9,131 nucleotides of DNA from Escherichia coli (GTDB lineage Bacteria > Pseudomonadota > Gammaproteobacteria > Enterobacterales > Enterobacteriaceae), in NCBI RefSeq assembly GCF_003334785.1, contig NZ_QOWV01000034.1; one strand, written 5' to 3'. Of the stretch, positions 1 through 1,428 are shown in pieces (position 1 is the stretch's first letter; each line of letters starts with the position of its first letter). The position numbers were made by a program, and so were the translations under genes. Under the pieces are notes generated by a model. That model was not told where the DNA came from and did no database searches. It worked only from the letters and a program-made list of their open reading frames with translations.

Positions 1-75
1 ATTCAGCGCAGTAGCTATCGCACGAATGCTCATTTTGGCTGACAAACCAGCTCGTATCTCCTCGCGCTCAGACAG

Positions 76-100
76 TGAACCGCCCCGGGAATCCTGGAGA
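76..100. repeat. Left terminal inverted repeat (IRL) of the IS element
   Basis: 25-bp sequence starting TGAAC, matching the reverse complement of 1361-1385 at 23/25 positions. Confidence 0.8.
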
Positions 101-129
101 CTAAACTTCCTGAGAAAGAGGTAAACAGG

Positions 130-456
130 ATGACTAAAAATACTCGTTTTTCCCCCGAAGTCCGTCAACGGGCAGTCCGTATGGTTCTGGAAAGTCAGAG
201 CGAATATGACTCACAATGGGCGACAATTTGTTCCATTGCTCCAAAGATTGGCTGTACGCCGGAGACTCTGCGTGTCTGGGTTCGCCAGCATGAGCGGGAT
301 ACCGGGGGCGGTGATGGTGGGCTCACCAGCGCTGAACGTCAGCGTCTGAAAGAGCTGGAACGTGAAAATCGTGAACTGCGCCGCAGTAACGATATCCTTC
401 GCCAGGCTTCCGCTTATTTTGCGAAGGCGGAGTTCGACCGCCTCTGGAAAAAATGA
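130..456 (+). CDS. IS3-family transposase OrfA (helix-turn-helix DNA-binding subunit with leucine-zipper-like C-terminus)
   Basis: 108-aa ORF. N-terminal HTH-like segment ([13 protein letters not shown]...[14 protein letters not shown]) and C-terminal heptad-like segment ([27 protein letters not shown]), as in IS3-family OrfA. Ends at the A6 slippery tract. Confidence 0.85.
448..456 (+). other. Candidate programmed -1 ribosomal frameshift / translational coupling site (A6 tract, AAAAAATGA) joining orfA and orfB
   Basis: A6 run at 448-453 directly before the overlapping ATGA. IS3-family elements commonly make an OrfAB fusion by -1 frameshifting on A-rich slippery sites. No downstream structure was evaluated. 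Confidence 0.4.
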
Positions 457-1343
457 TGCCACTGCTGGATAAGCTGCGTGAGCAGTACGGGGTCGGACCG
501 CTATGCAGCGAACTGCATATTGCCCCGTCAACGTATTACCACTGTCAGCAACAGCGACATCATCCGGATAAACGCAGTGCCCGTGCGCAGCGCGATGACT
601 GGCTGAAGAAAGAGATACAGCGCGTATACGATGAAAATCACAAGGTATACGGTGTGCGTAAAGTCTGGCGTCAGTTGTTACGGGAAGGTATCAGAGTGGC
701 CAGATGCACTGTGGCACGTCTCATGGCGGTTATGGGACTTGCCGGTGTTCTCCGGGGTAAAAAGGTCCGTACGACCATCAGCCGGAAAGCCGTTGCCGCA
801 GGCGACCGCGTAAACCGTCAGTTCGTGGCAGAACGACCTGACCAGCTGTGGGTGGCTGATTTTACTTACGTCAGCACATGGCAGGGCTTCGTCTATGTGG
901 CGTTTATCATTGATGTGTTTGCCGGATACATCGTGGGGTGGCGGGTCTCATCGTCTATGGAAACGACATTCGTGCTGGATGCGCTGGAGCAGGCGTTGTG
1001 GGCCCGTCGTCCGTCTGGCACCATCCATCACAGCGATAAAGGCTCTCAGTATGTGTCACTGGCCTATACGGAGCGACTAAAAGAAGCCGGATTACTGGCA
1101 TCAACAGGGAGTACAGGCGACTCGTATGACAACGCGATGGCGGAGAGCATCAATGGTCTTTACAAAGCGGAGGTAATACACCGTAAGAGCTGGAAAAACC
1201 GTGCAGAAGTGGAACTGGCCACACTAACGTGGGTGGACTGGTATAACAATCGACGATTGCTGGGAAGGCTGGGCCATACTCCTCCGGCAGAAGCAGAAAA
1301 AGCTTATTATGCTTCCATCGGAAACGATGATCTGGCAGCCTGA
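453..1343 (+). CDS. IS3-family transposase OrfB (DDE catalytic/integrase-core subunit)
   Basis: 296-aa ORF in the -1 frame relative to orfA. Candidate DDE residues in [16 protein letters not shown] and [13 protein letters not shown] (RNase-H-like transposase core). ATG at 453-455 overlaps orfA stop TGA at 454-456. Confidence 0.85.
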
Positions 1344-1360
1344 GTTCACAGATAAAACAC

Positions 1361-1385
1361 TCTCCAGGAAACCCGGGGCGGTTCA
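1361..1385. repeat. Right terminal inverted repeat (IRR) of the IS element
   Basis: Reverse complement TGAACCGCCCCGGGTTTCCTGGAGA pairs with 76-100; located 18 bp after the orfB stop codon (1341-1343). Confidence 0.8.
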
Positions 1386-1428
1386 TACTGTACGAAGAAA
1401 GAAACTACCGACTTCCGCGGAGATCACA

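Follow-up and report, generated by a model that had tools for sequence, protein, structure and literature searches.

A complete IS629-family element without target duplication and a probable local deletion beside a CBASS-Qat locus of Escherichia coli

The DNA analysed here is a stretch of 9,131 nucleotides from Escherichia coli (assembly GCF_003334785.1, contig NZ_QOWV01000034.1), called the window below. In it, a complete insertion sequence (IS) of the IS629 family, which belongs to the IS3 family, lies at 76-1385 between a fragment of an IS30 element and the last codons of a cyclase gene from a cyclic-oligonucleotide-based antiphage signalling system (CBASS). No target duplication flanks this element. 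We consider it very probable that the arrangement was left by a local, IS629-associated deletion of about 2.7 kb. For the specific route we favour, with more modest confidence, an insertion at a candidate hotspot in IS30 that came first, followed by a deletion starting from the right end of the IS.

The bases immediately outside the element read ...ctcagacag on the left (67-75) and tactgtacg... on the right (1386-1394), with no 3- or 4-mer in common. The flanks are thus cag and tac, where an IS3-family insertion is expected to show a duplicated target. The first-pass annotation had described intact IS ends with no flanking duplication, and the repeats, the flank letters and six control insertions all confirm it. 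These controls are IS629-family insertions with identical termini in the fetched loci, and all six have clean duplications: CAAG in AHB12, ATC in qatB of SCU-116, AAA in a second copy of 300709 that lies inside IS30, CAG in O157:H7 TW14359, GAC in DLI.6n and GTG in plasmid pMS1718-1. Because they share the termini of the window copy, the IS ends are correctly placed, and because simple IS629 insertions do leave duplications, the missing one is informative; taken alone, a flank mismatch is what chance predicts for unrelated flanks, in which a 3-mer would match in 1/64 of cases. The duplication is a property of the insertion event and not of the element, and its absence here marks a secondary rearrangement. 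Three independent complete genomes (TW10722, WS4437A-1 and 300709) have exactly the two junctions of the window, so the junction is not an assembly artefact.

Such scars are common. Three of the nine IS629 events examined in this analysis were without duplication, and in O157 genomes matching 3-4 bp duplications were found at 21 of 47 IS629 sites (Rump et al., PMC3271280). IS629 copies without duplications and IS-adjacent deletions are already well known, and the window presents a scar of this common type. Another copy without duplication is seen in SCU-116 (positions 19156-20465 of locus L006), with the flanks ...cgggta / gaaggcc..., between two truncated genes, one for a DNA-binding protein and one for CbtA. 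Here, too, a rearrangement associated with IS629 is the probable cause.

The two flanks come from different genes. The left one (1-75, minus strand) is an internal fragment of the IS30 transposase gene, translated as LSEREEIRAGLSAKMSIRAIATALN. It matches intact IS30 copies in CFT073, MFDS1001074 and BS74R-D at 100%, and in TW10722 the Prokaryotic Genome Annotation Pipeline (PGAP) names it “IS30-like element, missing N-terminus”. An intact IS30 continues as ...cagacag/tgtcaggtgagc past the window breakpoint (cagacag tgtcagg). The 243 bp beyond that point, with the N-terminal coding part and the terminal repeat (CFT073 8076-8318), are absent from the window. On the right, the terminus of the IS directly abuts the remnant of a CBASS oligonucleotide-cyclase (CD-NTase) gene at 1386-1499 on the plus strand. 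This remnant is the last 114 bp of a 442-codon gene, that is 37 codons and the stop, and aligns with 10772-10885 of the CFT073 gene at 9557-10885.

In the CFT073 locus (L005), the sequence of the window's left flank ends at 8075 and that of its right flank starts at 10772, with 2,696 bp between them. The order there is the 5' part of an IS911-like element, an intact IS30 on the minus strand, the 3' part of the IS911-like element, a short transposase fragment, the cyclase, the SLATT gene and qatDCBA. Both flanks are on one strand, and neither their order nor their relative orientation differs from the window, which is why the event is read as a local deletion and not as an inversion or a join of distant DNA. 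From the sequence of the window alone, it had been proposed that the flanks were not originally contiguous, and a comparison of both flanks with related genomes had been suggested. This comparison, now made, supports the proposal, with the interior of IS30 and the 3' end of the cyclase lying 2,696 bp apart. Of the three events named at that time, deletion is favoured and inversion is rejected, and recombination between two IS copies stays as an unlikely rival. The scenario that would have undone the proposal, a contiguous empty site in relatives together with slightly offset IS ends, is excluded: the right flank is cyclase and no empty site joins the two flanks.

CFT073 is a model of the ancestor and not the ancestor, because left of the IS911-like element it has other DNA than the window lineage. 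The two become homologous exactly at the left inverted repeat of that element (TGAAGTGG..., L008 6760 and L005 6760). Outside this end, one lineage has a methylase, a helicase and a hypothetical protein, and the other has an alcohol-dehydrogenase fragment; judged from these sequences, the IS911-like left end is taken as another rearrangement boundary. An earlier state is kept in SCU-116 and AHB12, whose IS911-like element has not received the IS30. The left context of the window lineage with an intact IS30 is present in strain 042 and in many enteroaggregative E. coli and O104:H4 genomes, and for this reason the IS629 insertion in the window lineage is placed in situ.

The sister strain TW10690 combines this left context (S8 peptidase, methylase, helicase, hypothetical protein and the IS911-like element interrupted by IS30) with an intact cyclase. 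Because TW10690 joins the two, the left-hand DNA and the CBASS-Qat island were already neighbours. The match of TW10690 to CFT073 stops at 7817 and resumes at 9235, extending through the intact cyclase; a full ISEc23 lies in between. Through this strain, the short transposase fragment of CFT073 could be identified as the 3' end of ISEc23. The ISEc23 of TW10690 (L011 7817-10131) cuts IS30 at a point different from that of the window, and its right end is at the ancestral position, 135 bp upstream of the intact cyclase. TW10690 probably carries a second, independent IS-bounded deletion of the same interval, formed via the ISEc23 3' remnant that is seen in CFT073. FCI23 was considered as the closest relative and set aside, as it has a CFT073-type island with an unrelated ISEc43 insertion.

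We searched 5,426 complete E. coli genomes for each junction, using queries of 64-70 nt centred on the junction and tight E-values. The right junction, from the IS629 right end to the cyclase, was present only in the three close relatives already named. The left junction, from IS30 to the IS629 left end, was present in 25 genomes and in three unrelated contexts. A junction of the IS629 right end, CAG and the continuation of IS30 (GGGGCGGTTCA-CAG-TGTCAGGTGAGCTACAG) was found in 23 genomes, each of them an O157:H7 strain of the TW14359/EC4115 type. TW14359 has ...cagacag/IS629/cag tgtcagg, which is a simple insertion at the same IS30 nucleotide and in the same orientation as in the window. An uninterrupted IS30 is present at this prophage position in 230 genomes at 100% identity, including EDL933, and since the matching empty site exists, the TW14359-type insertion took place in situ. 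The host IS30 of TW14359 (L009, around 9230) has an internal deletion of about 48 bp relative to the CFT073 IS30, removing the transposase start region, and the same deletion is found in the uninterrupted copies of the 230 genomes (100% query match).

CUVET20-416 has the same left junction, with IS30 resuming 51 bp further right; this amounts to a loss of 54 bp, including the duplicate CAG. From this distribution, the left junction of the window would be the original insertion junction and the right one would be new. AHB12 and SCU-116, which match the IS and the right flank, were tried as intermediates and rejected, as they carry unrelated IS629 insertions in the 5' end of the cyclase and in qatB.

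These comparisons suggest two steps, whose order and transposase chemistry we infer. In the first, IS629 would have entered a resident IS30 and made a CAG duplication, at a recurrently used position within the palindrome GACAGTGTC. This host IS30 would itself have been inside an IS911-like element of the IS3 family, just upstream of the two-gene CBASS and the qatABCD locus. In the second, the 3'-OH of the right terminus of the IS would have been transferred, within the same molecule, to a site in the cyclase about 2.7 kb downstream. Such an event would be an “adjacent deletion”, or sloppy one-ended strand transfer, and replication or repair would then fix the deleted form. The loss would come to 2,699 bp: the right CAG, 243 bp of IS30, the IS911-like 3' part, the ISEc23 remnant and 405 of the 442 cyclase codons. 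No duplication is expected from such a deletion because the left junction stays unchanged while the right one is new. Going by the same-position insertion of TW14359 and the intact IS30 sequence, the CAG at 73-75 would be the surviving left copy of the 3-bp target duplication, and the right copy would have been lost with the deletion.

The deletions in the window and in CUVET20-416 both leave the terminus ...GGTTCA exact to the last base, with 0 bp of microhomology on either side. A precise terminus without microhomology argues against end-joining or slippage between short repeats, and for a transposase-catalysed transfer of the right end. A “sloppy attack”, or sloppy strand transfer, model has been described (bioRxiv 10.1101/2023.06.07.543989), and IS3 was found to remove the DNA adjoining its inverted repeats, with no more than 6 bp of homology, even without the IS-excision enhancer (IEE) (Kanai et al. 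2022, PMC8860574). In three populations of the long-term evolution experiment, all 14 IS150-associated deletions were without duplications and came after an earlier simple insertion (PMC11708052).

The window shares several features with the adjacent deletions of IS629 and IS3 reported from O157 and from IS3/IEE experiments (Kusumoto et al. 2011, as far as it is cited in PMC9943667; PMC8860574). The IS is complete, the loss starts exactly at one terminus, the other junction is unchanged, there is no duplication and the endpoints have little or no homology; the size of the loss is also within the reported range (few nt to more than 40 kb). Unlike those deletions, the window is a natural chromosomal case that is reconstructed by comparison and not followed in real time, and its donor junction is inside another IS (IS30), at a recurrent site. 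The IS3-family deletions of the long-term evolution experiment covered 14 bp to 49 kb beside a pre-existing insertion, without duplications and sometimes with stepwise extension. The losses of 54 bp in CUVET20-416 and 2.7 kb in the window, from the same junction, are comparable to them. There, the prior insertion was seen directly at earlier time points, whereas here the intermediate is seen only in other lineages.

Several points weigh against this reconstruction. None of the 5,426 genomes shows, in this lineage, an IS629 in IS30 with the CAG duplication upstream of an intact cyclase; the simple insertion was seen only in genomic contexts other than that of the window lineage. With the intermediate unseen in the lineage, the order of events rests on comparison with other lineages. 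A query of 5.9 kb was built for the uninterrupted ancestor (left context of the window lineage, intact IS30, IS911-like 3' part and intact cyclase), and no genome covers 80% or more of it, the best being TW10690 with 76%; what the true ancestor had in the deleted interval is deduced from CFT073 and TW10690. The way in which a copy-out-paste-in element would resolve a deletion is unsettled (bioRxiv 10.1101/2023.06.07.543989). Lastly, the window IS is chimeric, which is also the expected product of a crossover between two copies. Up to about IS position 700, it is of the variant of its three same-junction relatives. A segment at 883-1264 on the plus strand (IS positions 808-1189) differs from them in the alignment of IS copies, and within 883-1109 the window is of the IS1203-like type, the variant of CUVET20-416, at 20 of the 20 differences. 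The two variants differ by about 2%, and the IS1203-like tract could extend to the IS right end. The pattern points to gene conversion, or to recombination, between this copy and a second IS629-family element of the source genome. The simpler account would be that a conversion came later, within the lineage of the window, because the three relatives with the same junctions carry a uniform, non-chimeric IS.

A RecA-dependent crossover between two direct IS629 copies, one in IS30 with CAG and one in the cyclase with TAC or CTAC, would delete one copy and the same 2.7 kb. We hold this unlikely, if less so than the other rivals. It yields the exact product that is observed, a hybrid IS whose two flanks derive from different parent copies, and could proceed without microhomology at the IS ends. 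The IS1203-like state of the window copy at 20 of 20 diagnostic sites from IS position 808 is what it would give. IS629 copies are also often close together (300709 has a second one in the same IS30 fragment), and missing duplications are known to result when ISs recombine with each other (PMC11708052). Known two-copy deletions likewise leave a single IS, one flank per parent copy and no duplication. The required cyclase copy has left no trace, however: the cyclase-side junction, ...ggcggctac / IS629 left end (GGACGGCGGCTAC-TGAACCGCCCC), was found in 0 of the 5,426 genomes, and the relatives in which both junctions are identical have a non-chimeric IS. The 54-bp loss of CUVET20-416 would need a second insertion only 51 bp away, and two insertions and a crossover would be needed where one insertion and one deletion suffice. 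The same null search answers the suggestion of the first-pass annotation to look for a second copy with the reciprocal flanks. On the deletion reading this junction is not to be expected, since the product of the deletion would be a non-replicating circle.

Deletion in the reversed order, with IS629 first in the cyclase (the right junction being original) and a leftward adjacent deletion from its left end into IS30, would give an identical product, and we regard it as quite improbable. If the GACAGTGTC site attracts IS629, an intramolecular attack from a cyclase copy could hit the same nucleotide, which is a further point against the order we prefer. The right junction is confined to 3 genomes, though, while the left one recurs in 23 genomes as one side of a simple insertion and is also the side that stayed fixed in another deletion; a cyclase insertion with duplication was not found in the 5,426 genomes, and the deletion would have to end at the very base of a known insertion junction and in its orientation. 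The same coincidence burdens a single-step event, in which IS629 was captured at a break or gap reaching from IS30 to the cyclase, or inserted through staggered cuts 2.7 kb apart, with no intermediate. For other ISs, movements accompanied by a deletion and without duplication have been proposed (PMC11708052), and no intermediate was seen among the 5,426 genomes. An unrelated break would, however, have to end precisely at the hotspot, as the left junction is exactly a recurrent simple-insertion site, and all IS3-family cases of the long-term evolution experiment were multistep (PMC11708052); we give this event very little weight. That there was no such rearrangement, with IS ends mis-called, a duplication decayed by point mutation, or an inversion instead, has practically no probability left. 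The left junction does have a 2-bp ambiguity, as IS629 begins with “TG” and IS30 continues with the same two bases. Mis-called ends, decay and inversion are all refuted by the six same-terminus controls with clean duplications, by a right flank that is cyclase and not IS30, so that no offset can create a duplication, and by the ancestral order and orientation of the flanks.

The element itself is intact. An inverted-repeat search over 1-1600 gave a single long pair, with arms of 25 nt at 76-100 and 1361-1385 that are 92% complementary. They delimit an element of 1,310 bp on the plus strand, which starts TGAACCGC and ends GCGGTTCA, with termini TGAACC...GGTTCA (5'-TG...CA-3'). The left inverted repeat is TGAACCGCCCCGGGAATCCTGGAGA, and the right one ends with ...GGCGGTTCA, followed directly by cyclase DNA (...GGCGGTTCA/tactg). 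The open reading frame list gives orfA (130-456, plus strand), the N-terminal transposase part of 108 amino acids, which covers positions 1-86 of NCBIfam NF033516, and orfB (453-1343, plus strand), the catalytic part of 296 amino acids, which covers positions 93-369. Against this IS3 transposase model, orfB scores 317 bits (cutoff 160). The ALIL pseudoknot, the programmed -1 frameshift signal of IS3-family elements, is found at full length at 411-527 on the plus strand (Rfam RF01497, 120.2 bits; gathering score 50). In size, TG...CA repeats, overlapping orfA and orfB with the pseudoknot, and transposase model score, the element is thus of the IS3 family.

The window copy has 98% identity to IS629/IS1203 copies of other genomes. 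Its naming among IS629, IS1203 and IS3411 is provisional: PGAP has “IS3-like element IS629 family” for the copy in TW10722, same-junction copies are named IS629 or IS3411, and the CUVET20-416 copy is IS1203. The same-junction copy is further interrupted in two relatives, by a group II intron (ltrA) in TW10722 (L001 6870-9132) and by ISCro1 in 300709 (L004 8597-11297), and the window copy is uninterrupted.

Some features further out were also observed. At its right end (about 9057-9131), the window enters an IS66-family element, ISEc23 in TW10722, that truncates a VasL-domain gene; WS4437A-1 and 300709 match the window only up to 9056. The DNA to the left of the scar (strain 042, L012 1-10382; L008 1-6382) encodes a SNF2-related protein, an AAA ATPase, an S8 peptidase, a DNA methyltransferase and a DEAD/DEAH helicase, and looks like another defence-type cluster adjoining CBASS-Qat. 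IS30 is inserted at the homologous “...ILKKA” codon position of orfA in two different IS3-family elements, one of them IS911-like. The two junctions are near-identical, aaaaaaggctac/tgtagattcaat (L001 5091-5104 and L002 15921-15931), which suggests a possible IS30 target hotspot within IS3-family orfA.

IS629-family insertions in IS30 cluster in the 9-bp palindrome GACAGTGTC (window 67-75 and its continuation; CFT073 locus 8071-8079). Their duplications (GAC, CAG and GTG) occupy a span of 7 bp, CFT073 positions 8071-8077, in both orientations and in at least five contexts. The CAG site is that of the O157 TW14359 clade, with the same junction in the window lineage and in CUVET20-416, and the GAC (DLI.6n) and GTG (pMS1718-1) insertions are 2 bp to either side, in the opposite orientation. 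Several IS629 insertions elsewhere in IS30 also exist; a chimeric IS30-side query of 203 nt gave 95 matches that are two separate pieces (spans of 285-768 bp), with IS629 elsewhere in IS30.

We tentatively suggest that the palindrome is a sequence-specific hotspot of IS629, used in at least five apparently independent events, that right ends there repeatedly shed flanking DNA (54 bp and 2.7 kb), and that IS629 systematically disables IS30 and erodes its neighbours, here CBASS. We see this as a serious possibility, short of probable. It is a lead and not a result, and may be the one point here that goes beyond the literature. Movement of an IS30::IS629 composite as a unit is disfavoured, as relatives of both lineages have resident IS30 copies without interruption at these positions, the IS629 copies are 2-5% divergent from one another and neighbouring insertions are in opposite orientation. 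Spread of IS629 by gene conversion between IS30 copies is another possible source of the pattern. In the published analysis IS629 has no sequence-based target preference (PMC3271280), and a true hotspot would contrast with it.

As for the defence island, the deletion took 405 of the 442 cyclase codons (92% of the gene) and left the 2TM effector gene intact. In the relatives, the pair of genes to the right of the IS matches the PADLOC models of a type I CBASS (CD-NTase and 2TM/SLATT effector) at full length. The intact cyclase of CFT073, named “nucleotide-binding domain-containing protein” by PGAP, matches Cyclase PDLC00796 over its full length with E = 1.8e-176. The effector gene is at 1507-2082 of the window, on the plus strand (Effector 2TM PDLC00695, E = 1.8e-82), and is annotated in relatives as SLATT domain protein WP_000194394.1. 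It begins 7 bp downstream of the stop codon of the cyclase remnant and is followed by qatDCBA. In a type I CBASS an intact cyclase stands beside the effector, as it does at full length in CFT073, whereas the window keeps only 37 cyclase codons and is predicted to be unable to function as a CBASS. The two-gene CBASS is thus read as inactivated and Qat as untouched. A simple scan of 1250-1560 found no sigma-70-like promoter between the IS end and the SLATT gene.

The IS had initially been thought relevant to how the island came to lie beside the left-hand DNA. It is relevant to the island in another way: it did not bring the island to foreign DNA, because the scar of an IS3-family element interrupted by IS30 already neighbours the island in CFT073 and TW10690, and what it did was erode it, with 92% of the cyclase gone. 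For inventories of defence systems, scoring the SLATT gene alone would miscount this strain. The value of the case is mainly in annotation and locus history, and it opens no new question. The simple insertion, the 54-bp loss and the 2.7-kb loss, all at the same IS end, form a natural series that supports transposase-driven, one-ended deletions by IS629 in the wild, and the junction shows a defence island that was eroded, not assembled, by IS activity.

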